The notes beneath the pieces are model-generated. The model did no database searches and was not told where the DNA came from. It saw nothing but the letters and a program-made list of their open reading frames with translations. Both the position numbers and the translations under genes were made by a program. Positions 1-17,092 of a stretch of DNA of 64,000 nt are shown piece by piece; position 1 is the first letter of the stretch, and every line of letters starts with the position of its first letter. Origin of the DNA: an uncultured Methanosarcinaceae archaeon. Its GTDB lineage: Archaea > Halobacteriota > Methanosarcinia > Methanosarcinales > Methanosarcinaceae. The DNA lies in NCBI GenBank assembly GCA_963847185.1, contig CAWJYV010000004.1, positions 128,001-192,000 of the forward strand, given 5' to 3'.

Positions 1-71
1 TCAATGAAAGGAAGGGATCTAAAGGAACCTTCTTGAAGAAAGTTCAGAACATCAGGTAAAAGAACAATTAA

Positions 72-165
72 CGGGCCCGCCGCGATTCGAACACGAGTCA
101 ATGGGTCTCTTCGTAATAGAATTACTTCGAAGCCCATTAGGATATCCTGGCTACCCTACGAGCCC
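72..165 (-). tRNA. tRNA-Arg(UCG) with 20-nt intron at 37/38 (intron 107..126)
   Basis: Minus strand GGGCTCG...CGGGCCCG acceptor stem, TTCGAA T-loop and ATGGG/CCCAT anticodon stem with TCG. A bulge-helix-bulge motif (CTTC/GAAG helix, GAA and AGA bulges) flanks the intron. Confidence 0.93.
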
Positions 166-647
166 GCAGTGCAGCATAGTGATAGAAGCAATCCATATTA
201 AAGGTTTCTCTCAAAATAAAGAGAAAGGAAAGGACAGAACCTGGAAAACTTCAGTACAAGGAATTTTGATAAACTGAATATACAGTCAGGTGAAATTTAA
301 TTAACTGAAAATACAGCCAAATAAAGTTTAATTATTTGAGAATACAGGACAAATGATTAAAAAAATATATTAAGTTGAACAATATAGTAAATAATATAAA
401 AAGTAAAAAATGTCGCGCCTGATTGTCTAATCAGGACCAGTGTTAAATTATAATATTAAACTATCAAGATTAAACAGCCTATATAAATCTACCAATAAAT
501 ATCACGTTTATTTTAGGCCTGGACAGTTGCCGGCACTCGTGGAAATTTAGAAGTCGTTCTAACTATTTCAGACCTGGATTCTACTGAATCTTATACTTCA
601 AAAATACAGATAAAAAACAAAAAGATATAAAAACGAAGGTATAATAA

Positions 648-5160: not shown

Positions 5161-5357
5161 ACTTGGTTCCTGCCTGATTTCTTCTAATATAATTAGCTAA
5201 AATATCTTATAGTTGTTACTGAAGATCTAATGATAAATCTGCGACATCTTTAGTCATTACGAGCAAAAAACCTTATAGATGATGAAAAAAGAAAAAGGTG
5301 CTAACTCAGGCCTTCGAGTTTATTGAAGGCCTGAAGTAATGAAGCATTTGATACCGA

Positions 5358-7154
5358 TTAGATCCACTGTCCTATGAAGGGCCCGAATATCATAAACATA
5401 AACGAAAACAATATCAGCATCGAGAAGCTCGCTGTGATAGAGTTTGAAACCTTTTCTGACGTCTTTTCACTTCTGGTAAGCCTGTACACAAAGGAATAGG
5501 TGTAGTCCTTAAATACGTGGCCTCCGTCCAGAGGTACTGCAGGCAGGCAGTTGAACAGGCCCACATAGAAATTCAGCCAGCCGACCCAGAGCAGGGTATT
5601 TGCAATCCAGAAAATTCCGATTCCCAGAGGTTCTGCCCAGCCCACCGGATGATAAAACTGCATTATCGTGCCTGAAAAGCCGCGGAACCCTTCGCCGGCA
5701 AATCCGTAGATAGGAAGCCCGAAAAGGACAATCCATCCTGCAGGCATTGTAAGCCAGGACGGGATTTGCTTGAGAGCTTCAAGATATAATTTTGCCTGTG
5801 GCATCCAGATAGAGATTCCGAGTATAGGGCTTTCTGCAACCTGGTTATTCCCGTAGATAACTCCAAGGAAGCCGTGCTCGCTTTCGGTGGGATTGGAAGC
5901 CAATTTCACATTATAGATAAGAGTGCCGTTTTCGGTGAGATTGCCAGTATAATTTGCAGGAGGCTGCAGTTCAATCTCTATGATCTGGTTTGCCTTAGTT
6001 GTCTCCATGAAGTTTACGAAGTTTGCAACATTTTGCATTTTTGTATCATTGATCCGGATCATAGTCATTCCGGTTTCAATCCCTGCAACTTCTGCCGGAC
6101 TTTCTTTAACAACTCCTCCTACGGTCACTCCAGGGACATAATTATTTTGAGCTGAAGCGGTTTTTACATCATGTACGGAAGCAACTCCGTCTTTAGTAGT
6201 ATAAATGCGCACGAAGTCCCCAGGTTTGACGGTTTCAAGATAGGTCAGGAGATCTATGGCTGTGCTGACATTCTTATTATCAACCTGTGTTATTACCATA
6301 TCTTTCTGGAGCCCTGCAATATCGGCAGGCGAGCTTTCGTTTACACTCAGGATCATGGCATCACTCAGAGGAGCAATTGCCCCTAACACGGGTCCGAAAA
6401 AGAGCAGGAAAGCGATAAAAGCAACTGTGAAATTGGCCATAACACCTGCGGCAAGAATTCTGGCTCTTTGAGTCCTTGTGGCAGCTATTATAGGCTCGGA
6501 TTTTGTCTCCATGGGTTGAAGAGTCTCAGTTTTCTGCCTTTTTTTCTCTTCTTCCTCCCACGTTTTGATTTCCTCGATAGAGGCTGTGAGAGGTAGTTCC
6601 TTTTTTGCTTCTTCCTTCTTTCCGAAAAGCTGCTCATCATCAGGCTCTGCAAAACCTCCAACAGGAACCAGGGCAAGCAGAATTCCCATAGACTTGACCC
6701 TGATATTTTCAACCCTGCAAAGAATAGCATGGGAGAACTCATGCACGACAAGGGTGACTATGAGCGCAATTACTCCCCAGGTAAAGGGAATAAATTCGTT
6801 TATCCCGGGTATTAAAAAGATATTTCTTGGAGCATTATATTTTCCAGGCTCCGGCATATTCCCATTCAGGAAAGAAGTATAAAGCGCAATGTCCGAAAGG
6901 GCGATAACCAGAAACATGGCTATCATGCCTGCAAACATCATGAGGATTCCAAGGTTTGCAAAGTTTCTCCAGTAAGATTTCGGACGGGCCAGTACATCCA
7001 GCAGTTTCAGGCCCTTTGTCGTCCTGATCATAAGAATAGGAAGCGGCCCGAAGGTACTTATGTTATATTTCTTCAGAATACCTTTCCTGTCAAGAACGGA
7101 GATAACGAACCAGTACAGTAAAAAAATACCCAGTGCAATGCTTGTGCTATTCAA
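5358..7154 (-). CDS. Site-2 (M50) intramembrane metalloprotease with two PDZ domains
   Basis: HEFSH zinc motif, NCLPAVPLDGGH motif, two SPA..AG PDZ segments, multiple TM helices. Confidence 0.92.
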   Translation of the reverse strand: MNSTSIALGIFLLYWFVISVLDRKGILKKYNISTFGPLPILMIRTTKGLKLLDVLARPKSYWRNFANLGILMMFAGMIAMFLVIALSDIALYTSFLNGNMPEPGKYNAPRNIFLIPGINEFIPFTWGVIALIVTLVVHEFSHAILCRVENIRVKSMGILLALVPVGGFAEPDDEQLFGKKEEAKKELPLTASIEEIKTWEEEEKKRQKTETLQPMETKSEPIIAATRTQRARILAAGVMANFTVAFIAFLLFFGPVLGAIAPLSDAMILSVNESSPADIAGLQKDMVITQVDNKNVSTAIDLLTYLETVKPGDFVRIYTTKDGVASVHDVKTASAQNNYVPGVTVGGVVKESPAEVAGIETGMTMIRINDTKMQNVANFVNFMETTKANQIIEIELQPPANYTGNLTENGTLIYNVKLASNPTESEHGFLGVIYGNNQVAESPILGISIWMPQAKLYLEALKQIPSWLTMPAGWIVLFGLPIYGFAGEGFRGFSGTIMQFYHPVGWAEPLGIGIFWIANTLLWVGWLNFYVGLFNCLPAVPLDGGHVFKDYTYSFVYRLTRSEKTSEKVSNSITASFSMLILFSFMFMIFGPFIGQWI

Positions 7155-7943: not shown

Positions 7944-8261
7944 ATGCTTGGAATTATATACATAACTGCAGGAAGCATGGAGAATGCATCAGGAATCGCA
8001 AAAGAACTGGTTTCAAAGAGGCTTGCAGCCTGCGTGAACATGTTCCCGGTGTCTTCAATCTACAGGTGGAACGAAAAGATAGTGGAAGATAACGAGATCG
8101 CCATGTTCGCAAAAACGGATTCATCCCATCTTGAGGAAATAACGAGAGTAGTAAAATCATTGCATACATACGAGCTGCCTGCAATTGAATTTTGGGGAAT
8201 CGAAGGAGAAGAAGATTACCTTGACTGGATTCGCGTAAATGTCTCAGAAGAAGGTGCATGA
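7944..8261 (+). CDS. cutA: Divalent-cation tolerance protein CutA
   Basis: LAACVN, SIYRW and HTYELPAI motifs. SD GAGGTG favours the ATG at 7944 over the TTG at 7905. Confidence 0.92.
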   Translation: MLGIIYITAGSMENASGIAKELVSKRLAACVNMFPVSSIYRWNEKIVEDNEIAMFAKTDSSHLEEITRVVKSLHTYELPAIEFWGIEGEEDYLDWIRVNVSEEGA

Positions 8262-8472: not shown

Positions 8473-8613
8473 CTAAACTCATTATAATTTCTTTTTTCAC
8501 TTAAGCTCTCATTTTCATTTATTTTTTCTAACATATCTATATGTCTTTTGAGTTGCGGCAAGGAACTGAATTACAGGCGCCAGATACATGGAAGACAGAG
8601 AACAATATATTCT

Positions 8614-8746
8614 GAGCTCATCCTAAAACTAATTAGGTCCTCAAAAATTAGTAAAGTTTCAGAACTATTTTTCCATGATCAGAAACTGGATTGATTATTC
8701 GGAATATGGGATTCAGAGAAGCAATTTTGAGTTTTGGGATGAACTC
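8614..8746. mobile_element. MITE family A copy (133 bp)
   Basis: Imperfect TIRs GAGCTCATCCTAAAACT / AGTTTTGGGATGAACTC. Differs by one base from 14887..15019. Confidence 0.85.
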
Positions 8747-9167
8747 TAAGAAATAATACCTTAAAACCTGAAGAAACTTGAAGAAATTGGAAGAAATTGG
8801 AAGAATTGAAGGTTAACTTCTTTTTTTAATACGTTCTATTGATAGTGTTTTTGTGCAGTAAATATGGCTGAATTTTTAACTTTTTTTAACCTTTTGTCTG
8901 ATGGCATTTTTAACCATGTAAAGTCAACTTTCTTTTTTCATTCATGCTTATTGATATTGCTTTTTGAATAAAAACCGGGTTGAAAAATTGATGTTTCTTG
9001 ACTTTCTTTTGTTGCTGTTTATATGTGCCAAAAGTGACAAAATACAACTGTCTTGGATATGCTGAATTAACACAAAAAGGGCAATTCCCTTTTAATATAC
9101 TCTCATGACTCTCGGTTGTTGGTCAAACAACGCAGAGCGACCACAGAGAGATAATTAAGTAAAAAAG

Positions 9168-9196
9168 TATCAGAAACATGTATTACATGTTTCTGA
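9168..9196 (-). terminator. Hairpin + U-tract after the 9211..9288 peptide gene
   Basis: TCAGAAACATG-TAATA-CATGTTTCTGA followed by TACTTTTTT on the minus strand. Confidence 0.6.
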
Positions 9197-9210
9197 AAAC
9201 GTTCTTGAAA

Positions 9211-9288
9211 TTATAGGAGATATGTGAAATCAAAATGAAAGCCGTTAATAATAGCAAAAAACTGACTAAAATTAAATGCAAACATCAT
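9211..9288 (-). CDS. 25-aa Phe-rich small peptide MMFAFNFSQFFAIINGFHFDFTYLL
   Basis: SD GGGGTGA 7 nt upstream, TATA-like ATTAAATA upstream, hairpin + U-tract downstream. Similar to the peptide at 15264. Confidence 0.6.
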   Translation of the reverse strand: MMFAFNFSQFFAIINGFHFDFTYLL

Positions 9289-9499
9289 GTCCTTTTCACC
9301 CCTTCTTAATTGCTCTTTTTCTATGAAGTGTTTTCAGAGCATAGGGTATTTAATTCTTTTTACATGTTTAACAGTCAGAATGTTAACTATTACTTTCACC
9401 AATAAGCTTGTTAAATTTTTTACTCTGAAATATTCATCAGAAGTATGTGTTCTTTAAATTTTATAGAACAGAACGACATAGTTAGATTGTAAGATAAAC

Positions 9500-9895
9500 C
9501 TAGATTCGTAGATGCGCAGGGAGCTTTGAGGGGGGCTTCCTGCACAATCTCTTCCTTCTAAATGCTTTCTCAAAAAATGGATTCTCTTTCTTTCTTGTTT
9601 CTCCTGAAAAAGGTATCCTTACATTTTGTGAACAGTATACCCTTTTCGGGTTATCTGTGGTAAAAGGGGTATTACATTCAATGCAGTTCTTTTGAATTTG
9701 GCCTTGCTCTTCTTTCCTGGCAGCTGGCTTATCTTCCTTATCATATTCAATATCTGGATTTTCCTGAACCACGTAACTATAAGCGCTTGATTCCTTTTCG
9801 ATGGGGGCTCCTAAGACTCTCTGGTTAATGAGAGTTTGAATCTGCAGGAAATAATTATTATACGTTGTTTTGAGGTCCTCTTCTCTTTGAGTCTT
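9500..9895 (-). pseudogene. 3' remnant of a coiled-coil + zinc-ribbon protein (paralog of 10387..11022)
   Basis: The frame extends upstream as REEDLKTTYNNYFLQIQTLINQR without a start. C-terminal CIEC...YCS. Confidence 0.65.
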
Positions 9896-9967
9896 GGAGA
9901 ATTAAGTAAAAATAGGTATCAGGAAATATGAAATTCACGTTCCTGATAGTGTTCTTGATATCATTTA

Positions 9968-10021
9968 TTATCTAAAGAATTCTAATAAAAATACATAAAA
10001 TTCCCAAGGGTATGGTAACAT
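9968..10021 (-). CDS. 17-aa hydrophobic small peptide MLPYPWEFYVFLLEFFR
   Basis: SD GAGGTGA 8 nt upstream. Same promoter and terminator context as 9211..9288 in a duplicated unit. Confidence 0.55.
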   Translation of the reverse strand: MLPYPWEFYVFLLEFFR

Positions 10022-10386
10022 GTTAATTTTCACCTCTTCTTAACAGATTCTTTTTCTTATAATATTAAAGACTGTCATGTATTTAATTATTTCTTCATGT
10101 TTTAATATATTTATTGAAAATTGAATATTTGTAAAAAAATATACCAAGGCCTCTTATTACCAGGTGCCTCTATAGCCTTCTAATTCTATAAGTTTGTTCA
10201 ATTTTTTGCCCTGAAAGATTATTCAGATGGATTTCTTCTTTAAATTTTATGAAAAAAGGATATAGTTAAATTGTAAGATAAACGCTGCCCCGTAGATATG
10301 CAGGGAGCTTTTGGGGGTCAACTCCCTGCAATTTAAAATCTATCTTTTCTCATTTTCTCCTATTAAACGCACTCCTGCATTTCTGA

Positions 10387-11022
10387 CTACATGCTTCTTT
10401 TTTCGGATTTGTTGTAAAAAAAGGGCTCCTTACAATTTTTACATATTTTTCCATCAAGGGCTTTCCTGCCTTCTGTGGAGACACTCTTTTCCTGCAGCTG
10501 GCTTTTATCTTCCTGATTGCTTCCTGTTGCTTCTCGTGAGCTTCCTATGGACTTCTGGTTAATCAATGTTTGAACCTGCAGGAAATAATTATTATGCATT
10601 TGCTTAAGGTCCTCTTTTCGCTGGCCTGCTTTCTTAAGGTCGTTCTCCAGGCGCTCTATGCTCTTATCCTTCTCTTCAAGTACCATTTTAATAGCTTCAT
10701 ACCTGGCCTGCTGCTGGACGAACTCCACAAGATCCGGAGCTTTTGCGAGATCATCTTTCAATTTTACACTTTCAGATTGAAGAGCCTTGATATCCTGTCT
10801 GTATCCTAAATATCCTGAAGATATCCTTCTATATCCTTTCTGTATCCTTCTTGGATCCTTTCCATATCCTGCTTGTATCCTGTTATATCCTCTTGTGGAT
10901 CCTCAAAGAACTTTTCTAGGGCTTTTGTTAAGGCCTGGGTAATATTCATACCCTGCAGTTTCTAACTTATTATAGAGGCTTACAGGTATCCAGGTGTTTA
11001 TTTTGCGTTTCTCTTCGGGCAT
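10387..11022 (-). pseudogene. Frameshifted RHH-like + coiled-coil + zinc-ribbon protein
   Basis: Reassembled across two frameshifts: MPEEKRKINTWIPVSLYNKLETAGY/NITQALTKALEKFF...HNNYFLQVQTLINQK...KICKNCKEPF. Confidence 0.65.
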
Positions 11023-11113
11023 AAACTTGTATTAAATTTTTTAGGGTATTAGTATATCCCTTTGTATCCTGGTTATATCCTATTGATATCCTGGATGTAT
11101 CCTTTGTGTATCC
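10790..11113. repeat. Two arrays of (T/G)ATCC motifs with 9-12 bp spacing
   Basis: 11 copies in 10791..10902 and 6 copies in 11055..11113. Confidence 0.85.
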
Positions 11114-11845
11114 ATGGGAGTGAGTTAGATCAATTTTATAATTCACTCTTTTATATTGCCTATGTGTTTCTTGCCTTATTTTTCTCTTGAAGTATGGGGT
11201 TAATCGATAGGAAAAAAGTTCTACCCAAAAATGGAATAAGCCCCCTGATGTTTAATTTTCACATATGTATTGGGTTTTGTATTCCATAGTACTATGGAAT
11301 GAATCTGAGCCCAAACACATAGGCACATTTTACCGATAACGATTAAAAAAACGAGTAAACAAAAGATTGCCTGATATTAAGCAACATGTCTGATTTCAAA
11401 GATGATTTTATTGAGTAAATTATTGAGAGTAATAAACTCAAAAAGATTTTTGCAAATAAGGCGAAATCGTGTTATGATATATTATGCTTTTATCGTTATT
11501 TGTAAGATTTTTCAGCGAGGTAATATTAAGCCTATTTTTCAATAAGAATATCATACCATAGCTAGAAATTTTAACCTATATATTTATTACACAATTTCAA
11601 AATCCATATATGTCATAACCATAGAATCTACGTAGAAAGAAATAGAGAGTTAAGATGGTGAATAAAGTAAACTGTATTTTTCATAATGCTAACTATTTTT
11701 CTTTTTAATATTCTCGTGTGTACAAAGTCAGGAATTTCTGATAATAATGTGCTTCATATTCCCCCGAAAACAACAGTATCTACTTAATAGATAAACACGC
11801 AACAAAGACAACTGTATGTAATATAACTAAATCAAGGAGAAAACA

Positions 11846-12381
11846 ATGAGTCATACGGCTGAGACTAAACAGGAGCCTGAGACTAAACAGGAGCCTGAGA
11901 CTAAACAGGAGCCTAGACTAAACAGGAGCCTGATTATAAGAAGAACAAAAAGATTTCGGAAATCATCTTAGATTATGTAAATCATATAGCTTCAGGCTTA
12001 TCTATATACTCATTTATAAAGGATTCTACTACAAAGGATTGTAATGAGGCGGTTACAGATTATTACCAGCATAATACAATGGCCACCGATATACCGTTTA
12101 AAATTATTGAACCAAAAGACGGTAGTTATGTACACAGAGTATTCACAGTTTATGGTATATGTGCAATACCTAGCTCATCAATAAACGTATGTGTTATCGA
12201 TAAGTATGGCCAAATATGGCGCGTAGGAACTGCTAACCCAACCACTGATGGACTATGGAAGTGTAGTGTAAGGATTGGGCAGTATGGTAACCAATATGCA
12301 GGAATTTTCACTCTATTTGCGAATTTAACAAAAGATAATAAATCCTATGAAACACCACACATTGATGTAATAAGGTCTTAA
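11846..12381 (+). pseudogene. Hypothetical protein with ETKQEP repeats, frameshifted in the 4th repeat; C-terminal beta-rich (Ig-like?) domain
   Basis: SD AAGGAG and ATG at 11846. GAGACTAAACAGGAGCCT x3 plus one 17-bp copy. Restoring 1 nt joins this start in frame to ORF 12079..12381. Confidence 0.7.
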
Positions 12382-13026
12382 TTTTTGAATTTCATCTTTT
12401 TATTTGCATTCAATGTCTTACACTTGGTGGGGTTATCGATAGTAAAATATAGCTACTCAAAATATTAAGCCTATTGATAGTGTTTTTGAGAATCCTGTCT
12501 ATAGTATATGGAATAGCTATTAACAAAAACACATAGGCACGTTTAACCGAAGCTGTTTTATTTTGTTGAGTAAACAAATTCACTAAAAAACCTTAATTTT
12601 AGTTCATAATTGATTAAATATATCTGCGTAAAAAAGAAATTCTGTTTTAGTTATTAGTGTTACTTTCATTAATATATTTACATAACTAGTATGTTTTGCA
12701 TATATACTGAGAAACTGGGAAAAATAATCTAAAAATTGCAGTATCCTTTTAATACTATCAATATTTCTTGATCGGAATATCTGTCTAGTAGTTTTGTGCT
12801 TTTAGAGTTGCTAATCCTTTACAATAAAACATAGGCTTACTGTCTGCCTCTATGTGAGGCTTTCAGGGAATGGATGGGACGATTTACCCGTTTTAAAAAG
12901 CTTCTTAGAATGGCTTAGAATTAGAAAGTTAAAAGATCGGCATTTAAAAAAGATTGAGCTCTGATAAAAAGTACGTGTTTATTTCAGGCTCGTTTAATTT
13001 TTAATGCTTTTTTGACCAGCAGATTA

Positions 13027-13569
13027 TTATGGTGTTTCTTCCACTTCCATGCCATCTACTTCGTACAATCCTGCAAGTGTGAGTGTCACGTATTCTGGGG
13101 AATAGATTGGATGGCAGGCAGTTATTACTCCTATGTCATTTTCGAATATGACTTCTTCTACAGTCGGGATGTATGTACCGTGAATTGATTCGTCGAGTAT
13201 TCCTGTTCCTGTAAATATGAAAGAATTATCATCGGTATTGAATGTAAGATAGCCTAATGTGGTGTCCATGCCTGTGAATTCATTATGGATTACGATATCA
13301 CATGAAGTAAATGTTTTTTCGTTGCCTGTGTTCGGGTCTATTAAAGAGTAATTCATGACGTTTACGGCTTTCGTGCTGTTGTTTATTAGGATTGGTCCAG
13401 CGTCTAGCATATTGTTTATGTATGCTCTTACTTCTGGGCTCATGTTAATCGATACGTATTCTGGTTTTGGTACTTCTAGACCATCATCTGCTCCTGCTAT
13501 TCCTAAAAACAGAACAAATACTGCTAAAAAAAGGCACAGCGTGATTGATGCTTTGTAAAATGCTTTCGT
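13027..13569 (-). CDS. Secreted hypothetical protein with ACG at the expected start (non-canonical start or start-loss pseudogene)
   Basis: GGAGG, 8 nt, then ACG AAA GCA, followed by a signal peptide KAFYKASITLCLFLAVFVLFLGIAGA in frame with ORF 13027..13443. Confidence 0.6.
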   Translation of the reverse strand, partial: TKAFYKASITLCLFLAVFVLFLGIAGADDGLEVPKPEYVSINMSPEVRAYINNMLDAGPILINNSTKAVNVMNYSLIDPNTGNEKTFTSCDIVIHNEFTGMDTTLGYLTFNTDDNSFIFTGTGILDESIHGTYIPTVEEVIFENDIGVITACHPIYSPEYVTLTLAGLYEVDGMEVEETP

Positions 13570-13881
13570 TTCTTATTCCTCCTAATATTTTTTCATTGCA
13601 TTTTACAGAATTTTAAAGATTTTAAATGTTATTATGTTAAATTGTGTATTTCCTCTTCAAAACTTAACAAATGCACAGAAGACTATAAAGGCTTATTATC
13701 TCCTTCTCTATGCGTTTTTCTCCTTCTAAGAGCTACATTCCACTTTTCCGGCACTCTAAAAACTTCTCTAAAGGGCTTATAATCGCTCAGTTCTACTGAT
13801 GCTTATTTTATTTTGCTAAGTAATGTTTATATACTTTACTTGCGTATATAGTAAATAGTCAAAGAATAAGGAGCGCAACAA

Positions 13882-14150
13882 ATGACCTACACCAGAGAAT
13901 TAGCAAGAATTAAAGCAGTCCAGAACCATGGAATAAAAACCACTATGGAAGACAAGCATTAAGAAACCCTGAACCTGTTTCTTTTGAAAGATGGTTCTTG
14001 ATAGGAATAAGAAGACAGGAGAAAAAGGGCGCTGAATTTGATTTTCTTTCTTCTGGATTGATCCGGATAAAATGGCCGGAAAAGGTCCCAATGCTCCGAA
14101 CAATGGCAGACTTTGAGAGGGAATTTCAAAATTACCTCTCAAAATTTTAA
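13882..14150 (+). pseudogene. Frameshifted small hypothetical protein
   Basis: SD AAGGAG; MTYTRELARIKAVQNHG then a shifted frame YGRQALRNPEPVSFERWF...QNYLSKF*. Confidence 0.45.
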
Positions 14151-14215
14151 TTCTTTTTCTTCCCGAAAGTGGTATAATGTTGCGCTCCGCTTTAGAAGAG
14201 AAACGAGGCTAATAT

Positions 14216-14593
14216 ATGACTGAAAGACCATCAAACAGGCCTAGTAAATCTGAACCATGGCCGAAGCAATACAGAAAATTAACAATGCAGCTGGAACCCT
14301 CAGATAGGATTTTCTTTAGGTCTGTAAATGCTCGGGGTATTCCTGCAGGTGTAGGGGCTGGAAACGCTGGGAAGGCTTGCACAGTGATAATAAGACAAAA
14401 AGAAATAGAAGGGCTGGAGAAGGTCCGGAGCTTTAGGGATCTTGAAGAATTCGCGGGCTCTTCTGTGGATATCTTCCCGGAGGACATGGTATTTTCTTGC
14501 CTGGTTGATTCTGTGGGGGCTCCTTATTCTGTGGGGCTTCCAAACAAGGGAAAGGATGTTACTATTATTGTTTTTGGAGAAGAAGAGGCTTAA
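14216..14593 (+). CDS. Hypothetical protein with two internal repeats (DUF2080/AbrB-like by inference)
   Basis: The two halves end in VGAGNAGKACTVII and VGLPNKGKDVTIIV. SD GAGG. Confidence 0.55.
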   Translation: MTERPSNRPSKSEPWPKQYRKLTMQLEPSDRIFFRSVNARGIPAGVGAGNAGKACTVIIRQKEIEGLEKVRSFRDLEEFAGSSVDIFPEDMVFSCLVDSVGAPYSVGLPNKGKDVTIIVFGEEEA

Positions 14594-14616
14594 ATTCTGG
14601 AAGGAGGAATAAACGC

Positions 14617-14859
14617 ATGAAAATGTCAATAATTGAAGCACTTGAAAAGCTGGCAGAGCTCAACAACTACGAAGAAATTTTAGTAAAAATCAAAGATGAT
14701 GAACCTACTTTAATTGATTTAGAAATTGATGATATCCGAAAGTTCGCGGATGATCCGGACCAAACTTTTGATTTGATAGTCACAGAGTACACGATACGAG
14801 AGCTAGATGAAAACGGAAATGAAAAATTAGGAGAACCTCTTTATAAAGTTGTAAGATAA
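14617..14859 (+). CDS. Small acidic hypothetical protein
   Basis: Strong SD AAGGAGG, 80-aa ORF, T-tract after the stop. Confidence 0.7.
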   Translation: MKMSIIEALEKLAELNNYEEILVKIKDDEPTLIDLEIDDIRKFADDPDQTFDLIVTEYTIRELDENGNEKLGEPLYKVVR

Positions 14860-14886
14860 TTAATTCCTTTTCTTTCCTTTTTATGT

Positions 14887-15019
14887 GAGCTCATCCTAAA
14901 ACTAATTAGATCCTCAAAAATTAGTAAAGTTTCAGAACTATTTTTCCATGATCAGAAACTGGATTGATTATTCGGAATATGGGATTCAGAGAAGCAATTT
15001 TGAGTTTTGGGATGAACTC
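14887..15019. mobile_element. MITE family A copy (133 bp), direct repeat of 8614..8746
   Basis: 132/133 identical to the copy at 8614. Confidence 0.88.
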
Positions 15020-15263
15020 AGGATATAATACATCCAGTCATCGTTATCAGAAAATATATAATGAAGTAATATTAAGAAGAACATATTCTATTTAGATTAT
15101 AAGTCTTGAGCTAATATATGCATATGTACTCATCAATAGAAAGGATTGAATATTTCTGTCCTTTTACTATGGTGAATATACTTTGAAGAAAATATCATTA
15201 TAATAAATTCTAAAAAATAAATATGCTTAATAGACAGACAAAATAAAGATCGGAGGGACCAAA

Positions 15264-15341
15264 ATGAAATTTGTATTTAACCTTAATTTTTTATTTCAAG
15301 CTATTGCAGGCATTAACCCACAGTTCTGTTTTGAATTTTAA
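15264..15341 (+). CDS. 25-aa Phe-rich small peptide MKFVFNLNFLFQAIAGINPQFCFEF
   Basis: SD GGAGG 7 nt upstream. 8/25 identities, ungapped, with the 9288 peptide. Confidence 0.6.
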   Translation: MKFVFNLNFLFQAIAGINPQFCFEF

Positions 15342-15427
15342 TCAAAATAGCTGCAGGTTAAAATTTAACTTAAATTTAACGCGTAAAAATAATCAATATA
15401 CAATACAAAATAATGGAGGGAGTTTTA

Positions 15428-15505
15428 ATGTCTATACTGTTTGAATACCTTACTATCTGCAAGACTTTTCAGCTGGAAAAATTCAGATTCATCCAGATTT
15501 GTTAA
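15428..15505 (+). CDS. 25-aa small peptide MSILFEYLTICKTFQLEKFRFIQIC
   Basis: SD GGAGGGAG. The SD+ORF unit is duplicated 138 bp downstream. Confidence 0.6.
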   Translation: MSILFEYLTICKTFQLEKFRFIQIC

Positions 15506-15565
15506 GACGCATAAAAACTGGATTAACCGAATGAACAGACAAACTAAAGAGTGGAGGGAGTTTTA

Positions 15566-15643
15566 ATGTCTATACTGTTTGAATACCTTGCTATCTGCAA
15601 GACTTTTCAGCTGGAAAAATTCAGATTCATCCAGATTTGTTAA
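15566..15643 (+). CDS. 25-aa small peptide MSILFEYLAICKTFQLEKFRFIQIC
   Basis: Copy of 15428..15505 with one substitution (T9A). Identity spans from the SD to the stop codon. Confidence 0.6.
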   Translation: MSILFEYLAICKTFQLEKFRFIQIC

Positions 15644-15936
15644 AGCCAAGAAATCATTATGAGGAAAGTCTATAGGAGGATTTACCAGGAACATAATGTT
15701 CGTGGATTAAGCCTTGACATAGACAAGAATACAGAAAATAGAACTTACATAGTTGCCCAGAGAGCAGGCAACTTTATTTATCATCTTTTTTCACTTTTTT
15801 GTCATACGGATAACTTCATTTATCCTAGATTAGAGCTTGAATATGACCGCTCTCCATAAGTTCCCTGAAATTTCTAGGAACTCATAACCTTACTGTAACT
15901 TACTCTTAATTAAGAACATTAGAACACTTAGAACAG

Positions 15937-16066
15937 GAACCTATCCCAAAACCCATTTCTGTTTCCATATCCATAGGAATTTCATACTATTTTCCTGATC
16001 TGTAGCTCAATTGATTATTTAAAAATCGAAATTGAAAGAGCAGTTTTTAAGTTTTGGGATCAGCTC
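15937..16066. mobile_element. MITE family A diverged copy
   Basis: Ends GAACCTATCCCAAAAC / GTTTTGGGATCAGCTC. Interior resembles 63587..63716. Confidence 0.75.
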
Positions 16067-16430
16067 ATACATTATTTTTTCAGTCATCCATATGTAAAGC
16101 TGGGGATTTCTCCAGCTGCAAAAACGTATTATCTCTTTTTATCTTTTAACAAATTGTACAAGCTCGATGTACATCATCAGACACACTGCGAAAAACAAAA
16201 CCCCTACTGTAAAAATCAAATGCGTGCGGCCATCCCACCCTAAAGAATGGGTACGCTTCGGGCCTCCCGCCGGGTTACTTGGAAAAGAAGTCACAGTGTC
16301 CTTTAACAAGGTTTCATTGATCTAAGTGATTGAAACTCTGCCACCGATATCTGTCGGATTTCCGATAACTTTCCAAAGAAGAGACGATTAAGATATGTAA
16401 GGGGAAAAACGAAGAGGCGAGGGTTCACAT

Positions 16431-16487
16431 CATCCCCAATCTAAAGAATGGGGTATTCGTGACCCTCTGCGCTCCCCATGTAATAAA
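16431..16487. mobile_element. Hairpin repeat, possibly an IS200/IS605-type end remnant
   Basis: CCCCAATCTAAAGAATGGGG hairpin plus a tail shared with 48602..48647. A related hairpin lies at about 16231. Confidence 0.45.
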
Positions 16488-17092
16488 CACAATCGGTTAA
16501 ACTTACCTATGTGTTTTGTTTAATGTATTCTAAAGGCTATATGCATGGATTTACAGTTTTTTGAGTTTTCCAGAGAAAATGGATAAAATAGCTATCAGTA
16601 GAAATCTTCATCCTATCAGAATTGTGAAAATCGTATTTAGTGATAGGTATTCCCTTCGATAACGCGTATTCTAGCGTAACATGGAAAGATTTCCGAAAAT
16701 CTTTCATGATTCCCCAGGACAGCAGCTACAAAAACTCCGATAAATCAGTTAATTCTCTCGTAAGAAGGAAACAAGAGAATTCAAAAAATCAATAATCTGG
16801 AAACATCAGCCTGTTTGTAAGGCTTTCATTCTTTGAGCAGAAAACAGTCTTACCGAAGTCGAGATTGTAGCTTACTGGATAGATTGTTCTCAAAACTAGT
16901 AATCGTGTTTACTCGGAAAGATTGTAGTTCTGGTAGTTTTTATTAAGGTTCTTTTTGGCAAATGCGAACAGGATTCTTAAAACATAGATTTAAATCTTTA
17001 GGTGTTCTAACTGTCTTAGTATATTTTCAATGTGTATCTGATTTTGCTTTTTTTTTAGTTTGTTAGTTTATAAAAATAAGGAGGAGATATTA

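Follow-up and report, generated by a model that had tools for sequence, protein, structure and literature searches.

Within a 64,000-nt stretch of DNA from an uncultured Methanosarcinaceae archaeon (positions 128,001 to 192,000 of contig CAWJYV010000004.1, GCA_963847185.1), hereafter called the window, lies the margin of a lineage-restricted gene system that consists of two unrelated small-peptide families, which we term type A and type B. Both families are unannotated, and they occur in multi-cistron arrays in a few species of one methanogen genus. An earlier note, made from the letters of the window, had drawn attention to four open reading frames (ORFs), at 9288 on the minus strand [9288(-)] and at 15264, 15428 and 15566 on the plus strand, and had proposed that their Phe-rich products form one family in one island. 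The ORF list and the sequence agree with the note in that each of the four ORFs has exactly 25 codons and stands behind a strong Shine-Dalgarno (SD) site, located 4-7 nt before the ATG (Table 1). The number and the nature of the families, and their main location, turned out to be different.

The window contains 23 ORFs of exactly 25 codons that start with ATG, and a GGAGG or GGGGTGA sequence lies 4-16 nt upstream in these four only. In 100 first-order Markov resamples of the window, such SD-led 25-codon ORFs occurred at a mean of 0.19 and a maximum of 2. The shuffle test proposed in the earlier note thus places the frequency above chance (4 against a mean of 0.19), with the proviso that the SD pattern was picked post hoc, after the four ORFs had been seen, and that 15428 and 15566 are to be taken as one event in this test because they lie inside a 101-nt direct repeat (15405-15505 and 15543-15643, 96% identical).

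Sequence comparison assigns 15428 and 15566, whose peptides differ by one residue, to type A, and 15264 to the unrelated, very Phe-rich type B. The 15428 peptide matched the type A profile with E = 7e-16 and is 60-71% identical to the A copies on contig 8 of the same genome (G000), while the 15264 peptide matched the type B profile with E = 6.5e-14 and is 64-68% identical to B genes from the large arrays that G000 (contig 8) and two other genomes of the genus, G023 and G173, carry. Type A peptides have 24-26 residues with invariant Glu6-Tyr7-Leu8, Phe19 and Gln23; type B peptides are hydrophobic, have 23-25 residues (genes of 23 or 25 codons), and carry invariant Met1, Phe3, Phe5, Phe11 and Phe21. 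A profile-profile comparison of 19 type A with 11 type B sequences detected no relation (probability 0.2%). The ungapped alignment of the 9288(-) and 15264 peptides presented in the earlier note holds, with 8 of 25 residues identical (32%), and Phe5, Phe21 and the hydrophobic residues at positions 3, 7, 10 and 14 are literally present in all four peptides; given the absence of any relation between the profiles, however, these common positions are a compositional resemblance without detectable homology. The four ORFs are therefore not a family of four but two unrelated peptide types, with 9288(-) as a marginal, solitary relative of type B.

The bulk of the system lies outside the window. A DNA search of the own genome with window positions 15380-15660 returned a cluster of matches of 67-79% identity on contig 8, where 14 genes are located on one strand within 2 kb (C8:336183-338190(-)): ten A genes of 24-25 codons, three B genes of 25 codons, and a short B' head gene of 23 codons. 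Tandem Repeats Finder resolved this locus into a B-A-A period of 414 nt, present in 2.8 copies (89%), and an A period of 133 nt, present in 3.7 copies (99%). Profile searches covering about 148,000 stop-to-stop frames of G000 and five loci yielded 40 A copies in three genomes; a fourth genome, G173, added 10, and one metagenome contig nine more in the same array layout. Three other species of the genus carry arrays of 3 to 17 genes. Altogether, 11 multi-gene arrays were found in four genomes, and A and B genes are present in every one of them. The arrays comprise 3-17 cistrons with a spacing of about 130-160 nt, and a B-type gene stands at the head in 9 of the 11 (one a weak match), the other two opening with A-B-A. 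A solitary A gene adjoining a MarR-like regulator gene is kept in both G000 and G023. When metagenome contigs were compared with the window in four DNA runs, in which the contigs were short and show that related copies exist, three of the variants listed lay inside ORFs, a count that refers to the listed variants, beside which there were 509 further differences. The two in the B gene (15287 and 15332) are synonymous changes at third codon positions, and the one in an A gene (15627) changes Phe to Tyr, towards the family consensus.

Both types are very likely translated genes and, judged from how their sequences diverge, they are under purifying selection and are neither repeats nor RNA genes. 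A GGAGG-like site was located within 22 nt before the ATG in 39 of 39 A copies and 13 of 13 B copies, a list that omits one A copy (locus L032, 4905-4982) and one false B match. Among A copies of 24 or 25 codons (31 of the 35 distinct sequences) and B copies of 25 codons (8 of the 11), the called frame was open in all 31 and all 8 sequences, respectively, and was the sole frame open throughout, every other frame being interrupted by stops in 6-30 of the A and 2-8 of the B sequences. The pooled ratio of non-synonymous to synonymous differences per site (pN/pS) was lower in the called frame than in any of the other five, for A (0.41) as well as for B (0.57); the other frames gave 0.54 and 0.86-1.25 for A, and values from 0.64 and 0.71 upwards for B, so that the margin for B is small. 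Because copies within an array are not independent, we took four G000-G023 pairs from different subfamilies (the solitary A, two A subtypes and B), the only comparisons that are roughly independent. Over 50.3 synonymous and 246.7 non-synonymous sites these pairs contained 21 and 20 differences, respectively, which corresponds to a pN/pS of 0.19 (binomial p = 5e-7). G150 is more distant, and its A peptides have only 50% identity with those of G000, but start, stop and SD site are kept. When 38 units were aligned, conservation was 0.7-0.99 in the columns of the SD site and the ORF and 0.3-0.6 in the spacers. RNAalifold found no consensus pair in 20 units, and Rfam reported a tRNA-Leu in the window and no family over the peptide genes. 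The proposal of an unannotated, conserved archaeal small-peptide gene system is upheld by these results, homologues with preserved frame and length having been found in relatives. The suspicion voiced with it, that AT-rich DNA and its Phe codons could have produced part of the similarity, is not supported in view of the homologues, the kept frame and the above-chance frequency.

The distribution of the system is narrow and patchy. A search with the wider A alignment matched 4 of 59 genomes of the genus (G000, G023, G150 and G173), and a class-wide search of 392 genomes returned the same four and none of the 333 outside the genus. Weak matches in G025 (E = 0.009) and G095 (E = 0.001) contained in-frame stops, did not recur in the class-wide search, and were treated as chance. 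As a rough guide to relatedness we used the identity of a conserved membrane protease to that of G000. By this measure G173 (87%) and G023 (85%) are among the nearest relatives, and G150 (79%) is no closer than many non-carriers. G171 (97%) is nearer than G173 and G023 and gave no array match, but its assembly is 81% complete and divided into 520 contigs, so that the blank means little. The patchy distribution implies that the family is either old and often lost, or has moved.

Searches of sequence collections returned very little. A 41-residue stop-to-stop query produced no candidate among 5.8 billion protein clusters, and one match, a 30-residue protein, was obtained among 1.84 billion predicted-protein representatives. 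Eight peptides matched no Pfam or NCBIfam family at E values up to 10, and none of 37 pattern matches in viral contigs was confirmed. Four metagenome contigs carry the family, two of them near-copies of G023. The ESM Atlas gave no usable match for type A and unnamed clusters only, at 0.75-0.77, for type B. The conserved N-terminal 8-residue motif of type A appeared in no paper of the searchable literature.

Oligo-T is a termination signal in archaea. T runs of at least 5 nt on the sense strand occur once in the 2008 nt of the G000 array and not at all in the 2449 nt of the G023 array, compared with 4.1 per kb genome-wide, and resume right behind the last cistron; A runs of at least 5 nt on the same strand number 12 and 19, respectively. 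Within three groups, the head genes have conserved upstream blocks in common. The scarcity of sense-strand oligo-T, its return past the array end and the conserved blocks at the head point to one polycistronic mRNA per array, an organization that we consider moderately probable from the sequence pattern. In G000, G023 and G173, a T-rich 13-nt motif forms a direct repeat at a distance of 75-100 nt upstream of the B' head genes, and could be a regulator-binding site or a promoter element of the arrays.

By mean Eisenberg hydrophobicity, type B (0.31-0.66) is calculated to be as hydrophobic as membrane peptides; type A is less so (0.04-0.30), has a neutral to cationic net charge (0 to +4), and is predicted to form a helix. 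Most A peptides end in Cys or in Cys followed by one residue, and some G150 copies have no Cys.

The 9288(-) gene stands apart from the arrays. Its peptide aligns without gaps with 10 B-type peptides and retains the invariant Met1, Phe3, Phe5, Phe11 and Phe21; against a B profile built without it, the peptide scored 14.7 bits and ranked 15th among about 148,000 frames. A 124-nt segment over its leader and first codons is 81% identical to C7:248726-248849 of G000, which is located upstream of a frameshifted B-like pseudogene. This contig-7 copy (C7:248573-248756(-)) is clearly B-type once the frameshift is allowed, overruns the usual stop, and is also followed by a similar hairpin. It is mainly because of this paralogue with its similar leader that we place 9288(-) in type B. 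No A gene follows 9288(-). These features suggest a divergent, monocistronic, possibly decaying offshoot of type B with its own promoter-like region and terminator. A further sign of decay was observed in G023, where one A copy (locus L032, 8783-8860) starts with TTG instead of ATG.

Table 1. Coordinates of the peptide genes and associated features. Positions without a locus or genome name are those of the window.
Feature	Position	Strand	Remarks
Type B peptide gene, head of the three-gene mini-array of the window	15264-15341	+	25 codons and stop, ATG start
SD of the 15264 gene	15252-15257	+	GGAGGG, read from sequence
Type A peptide gene, copy 1	15428-15505	+	25 codons and stop, ATG start
SD of the 15428 gene	15416-15423	+	GGAGGGAG, read from sequence
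Type A peptide gene, copy 2	15566-15643	+	25 codons and stop, ATG start
SD of the 15566 gene	15553-15560	+	GGAGGGAG, read from sequence
Two T6 runs	15786-15800	+	First oligo-T stretch downstream of A copy 2; candidate archaeal terminator for this mini-array
Solitary, divergent B-type gene	9211-9288	-	25 codons and stop, ATG start
SD of the 9288(-) gene	9296-9302	-	GGGGTGA, read from sequence
Conserved leader and promoter-like region of the 9288(-) gene	9289-9402	-	
Hairpin (9171-9195) followed by T6 (9161-9166)	9161-9195	-	Directly past the 9288(-) stop; terminator-like
MacB-type three-gene operon	L011 6972-8000 / L052 945-4194; L032 262-3497		G000 contig 8; G023
Repeats of the 13-nt motif	L011 ~5290-5330; L032 ~6755-6800; L048 ~8080-8120		Upstream of array heads

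The peptide genes of the window lie within a gene-poor stretch (8474-17060) with a G+C content of 0.34-0.35, compared with 0.38-0.41 upstream, which is bounded by a tRNA-Leu gene and the gene for a 969-residue NHL/NosD/PKD surface protein and is full of dispersed repeats. The neighbouring genes include no modifying enzyme or exporter adjoining the window copies, as the earlier note had stated. Its assumption of an island, in contrast, did not survive: Pfam revealed no integrase or other mobile-element gene among the nine ORFs of this stretch, and the bracketing 134-nt repeats (8613-8746 and 14886-15019), which we had considered as possible att sites of an integrated element, were rejected as such since they belong to a dispersed family of about 30 genome copies. 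The copies of this family are 70-88% identical, the window pair 97-99%. A second family, represented at 15936-16069, has at least 15 copies at 73-97%; both consist of units of about 130 nt that look like miniature mobile or recombination-prone elements, and the translated ORFs inside them are probably spurious.

Other features of the window were recorded in passing. Two paralogous small ORFs, 9500-9772(-) with 90 codons and 10387-10761(-) with 124, have zinc-ribbon-like C-termini of the Cys-x2-Cys kind; they are part of a duplication of about 780 nt and matched no Pfam family. Further copies of 75-87% identity are present on contigs 1, 4 and 7, and one of these copies adjoins the B-like pseudogene. 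A 280-nt repeat (16210-16490) is about 90% identical to three other copies on contigs 7 and 8. At 11859-11931, inside a 41-codon ORF, an 18-nt unit occurs four times in tandem, and five spaced copies of a 21-nt unit at 10787-11103 lie over minus-strand small ORFs, where they would give rise to repeated short peptide motifs. ARAGORN predicted a 96-nt tRNA-Arg(TCG) at 71-166(-), long enough to hold an intron, that is unreported at the Rfam gathering threshold.

In G000 and G023 the big arrays lie divergently to a conserved ABC operon of the MacB type. Its three genes code for an ABC ATPase, a protein of some 415 residues that has weak CARDB and NPCBM-associated matches, and a MacB-PCD/FtsX permease; a second paralogous set is located about 4 kb away. 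The arrays of G150 and G173 lie mostly beside unrelated genes, the exception being the G150 array on C250, which is next to an ABC-2 transporter and to a homologue of the 415-residue protein. No tailoring enzyme (radical-SAM, cyclase, peptidase or other) adjoins the loci examined in the four genomes.

Taken as a whole, the best explanation that we can offer, tentatively and with slightly less than even confidence, is a translated two-family system of polycistronic arrays whose peptides are directed to membranes. An array would be transcribed from a promoter-like block upstream of its head gene into a single mRNA ending at the first oligo-T stretch behind the last gene, and each mini-cistron would be initiated at its own strong SD site, so that one transcript may yield many peptide molecules with A in excess over B. 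Amplification to 10-17 cistrons per locus likewise implies a product made in quantity. Since there is neither a leader nor a partner enzyme, the peptides would probably be used as made, free of signal peptide and modification. We propose a two-component, membrane-directed bulk peptide system on the grounds of the constant pairing of A and B, the excess of A, the subtypes kept across species and the fast turnover of copy number. The hydrophobic B and the helical, neutral-to-cationic A might then act jointly at a membrane, either the producer's own or, after release, that of a competitor; this joint action is possible, though we hold it with considerable reserve.

Several observations weigh against this explanation. 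At the loci examined in the four genomes, the arrays have no consistent link to any enzyme, exporter or immunity gene. Of the 59 genomes of the genus, 52 have the MacB-type operon compared with 4 that have the arrays, a distribution on which we rejected the operon as a specific exporter of the peptides; given that it is not co-distributed and that the other contexts are mostly unrelated, no dedicated exporter or immunity gene could be identified. T5-T7 runs within the ORFs of several cistrons might terminate some transcripts. The whole-peptide hydrophobic moments, calculated for helix and strand, were not above those of shuffled sequences (z at most 1.3, p at least 0.1), and an amphipathic helix or strand is thus unsupported by this measure. 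AlphaFold2 predicted a single helix for type A (pLDDT 82) and a central helix with extended Phe-x-Phe ends for type B (pLDDT 68), but the constructs carried 5 or 10 leader-encoded residues and a helix is a near-default outcome for such short peptides. Copies within an array were duplicated recently (3.7 units at 99%), so that the pooled counts overstate independence. Finally, 9288(-) scores just E = 0.17 with the B profile, and its sole close paralogue is a pseudogene.

Some of the same features would be expected of type I toxin-antitoxin-like selfish modules, in which membrane toxins (B above all) are checked by antisense or small RNAs and duplicated in tandem. The families ibs-sib and ldr-rdl of Escherichia coli, in the parts of PMC2887945 that deal with them, are hydrophobic ORFs of very small size that annotation had missed and that are duplicated inside a single intergenic region, and they are lineage-restricted and arose by independent duplications; the criteria given there by Fozo et al. 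(2010) are ORFs of 16-70 residues in intergenic, tandem positions, with a stretch of 15 residues of which at least 10 are I, V, L, F, C, M or A, as a proxy for a transmembrane segment. The arrays consist likewise of very short, lineage-restricted ORFs overlooked by annotation, they fall within that size range and are tandemly repeated in long, gene-poor intergenic regions, and 11 of the first 15 residues of the 15264 B peptide belong to the hydrophobic set (hand count). The patchy distribution over 4 of the 59 genomes, the single dispersed copies and the pseudogene would also suit such modules. Type A, however, which makes up the majority of the cistrons, seems, to judge from 15428, to have no transmembrane-like stretch and to remain below the limit of 10 (at most 8 of 15 for 15428, hand count). 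The spacers of about 55 nt hold an SD site but no separate conserved promoter, unlike the E. coli units, each of which has its own promoter and antisense RNA, and the scarcity of sense-strand oligo-T suggests one long, polycistronic-looking transcript rather than unit-wise control, although the frequent sense-strand A runs would supply antisense transcripts with oligo-T terminators. We know of no precedent for ten to seventeen toxin copies in one operon, and no comparable tandem type I toxin-like locus in archaea was found in the main texts of the literature searched. Type I modules are accordingly an unlikely account of the arrays.

A role as intracellular small proteins that modulate an enzyme or complex, with the arrays raising the dosage, would have precedents in the same archaeal order. 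According to parts of PMC11456600, PMC13370731 and PMC12774963, Methanosarcina translates hundreds of unannotated small ORFs, some of which act on enzymes or membranes, and the small-protein-encoding RNAs and small ORFs of Methanosarcina mazei are described in parts of PMC11456600 and bioRxiv 10.1101/2025.10.28.685009 as SD-led and intergenic, with some products membrane-associated. The A and B genes resemble these in size class and as SD-led, intergenic small ORFs, but differ in being arranged in tandem arrays: apart from the supplementary ORF lists, the words 'tandem', 'paralog' and 'copies' are absent from the main text of PMC11456600, and 'copies' is absent from the text of the bioRxiv paper. 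Purifying selection on the subtypes A1, A2, B and B', which are kept in two species, fits specific partners. On the other hand, no conserved neighbour gene hints at a target, the contexts being mostly different, regulators are rarely amplified to 10-17 copies, and the family is absent from 55 of the 59 genomes of the genus, so that any target would have to be dispensable or lineage-specific; we regard a modulator role as rather doubtful. Rows of near-identical precursor genes are typical of some classes of ribosomally synthesized and post-translationally modified peptides (RiPPs), and the near-identical A genes in rows, most with a C-terminal or penultimate Cys, could be read as precursors of RiPPs or pheromones processed by enzymes encoded elsewhere. 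Among the functions listed in the earlier note (membrane-active toxin, amyloid-like peptide, pheromone or RiPP precursor), RiPP precursor is the least likely, because no enzyme gene travels with the arrays, and we regard the precursor reading as very improbable; in addition, 24-25 residues leave little room for leader and core, the Cys is not invariant, being missing from some G150 copies, and NCBIfam, which holds many RiPP precursor models, gave no match for the eight peptides. There remains the notion of a non-coding tandem repeat or small-RNA array with incidental ORFs, aided by Phe-rich, AT-rich sequence. The copies are indeed DNA repeats in an AT-rich region, and gene callers almost never call the ORFs. 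The frame-specific conservation with its synonymous excess nevertheless largely refutes this reading, as do the start, SD and stop positions kept at 50% amino-acid identity, the lower conservation of the spacers, and the lack of a consensus RNA structure or Rfam family, and we consider it extremely improbable.

A two-family, membrane-directed peptide system would have its closest parallels in bacteria. The alpha operon of the phenol-soluble modulins (PSMs) of Staphylococcus aureus encodes several leaderless peptides of about 20-25 residues head to tail, each with its own ribosome-binding site, which are used without processing and made in bulk. The arrays are similar in their leaderless peptides of about 25 residues and in the head-to-tail cistrons, each with its own SD site. 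PSMs, as parts of PMC12623860 and PMC7527219 describe them, are amphipathic, membrane-active peptides exported by PmtCD. The archaeal peptides, in contrast, show no sequence relation to PSMs in the Pfam and NCBIfam searches and no helical hydrophobic moment above that of shuffles, they are of two unrelated types in up to 17 cistrons of an archaeal host, and no dedicated ABC exporter accompanies them, the neighbouring ABC operon not being co-distributed. Class IIb bacteriocins of lactic acid bacteria likewise consist of two small peptide genes side by side, whose products, in the systems known so far, act on the membrane only together; the known precursors have a double-glycine leader and are accompanied by an immunity gene and a peptidase-domain ABC transporter. 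The A and B genes are always found together as well, but no double-glycine leader exists in the peptides, which have 23-26 residues in total, neither an immunity gene nor a peptidase-domain ABC transporter was detected among the neighbours, and the A:B ratio is far from 1:1. The system is similar in layout to the leaderless-peptide operons of bacteria and to tandem type I toxin loci, and no testable feature makes it a member of any of these.

No part of archaeal genomes is less well charted than the small proteins, and the two families illustrate how nearly invisible conserved, selected genes can be to annotation pipelines, with one predicted protein in 1.84 billion. The arrays would also offer a natural case in which a single archaeal mRNA carries very many SD-led mini-cistrons, useful for studies of translation re-initiation and of termination signals in archaea. 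Peptide antagonism, surfactants and type I toxins, all familiar from bacteria, are barely documented in methanogens, which inhabit sludge and soil in dense consortia, and a defined, easily synthesized pair of 25-residue peptides makes the question directly testable. It is conceivable, although we think it doubtful, that A and B, mass-produced by a methanogen in unmodified form from one multi-cistron transcript, co-assemble in membranes, with A in excess and B as hydrophobic partner, and represent the first counterpart in archaea of the leaderless peptide weapons or surfactants that bacteria make. If so, the peptides would kill or inhibit competing methanogens or shape cell aggregates, and the fast-changing copy number and mix of subtypes would reflect an arms race.

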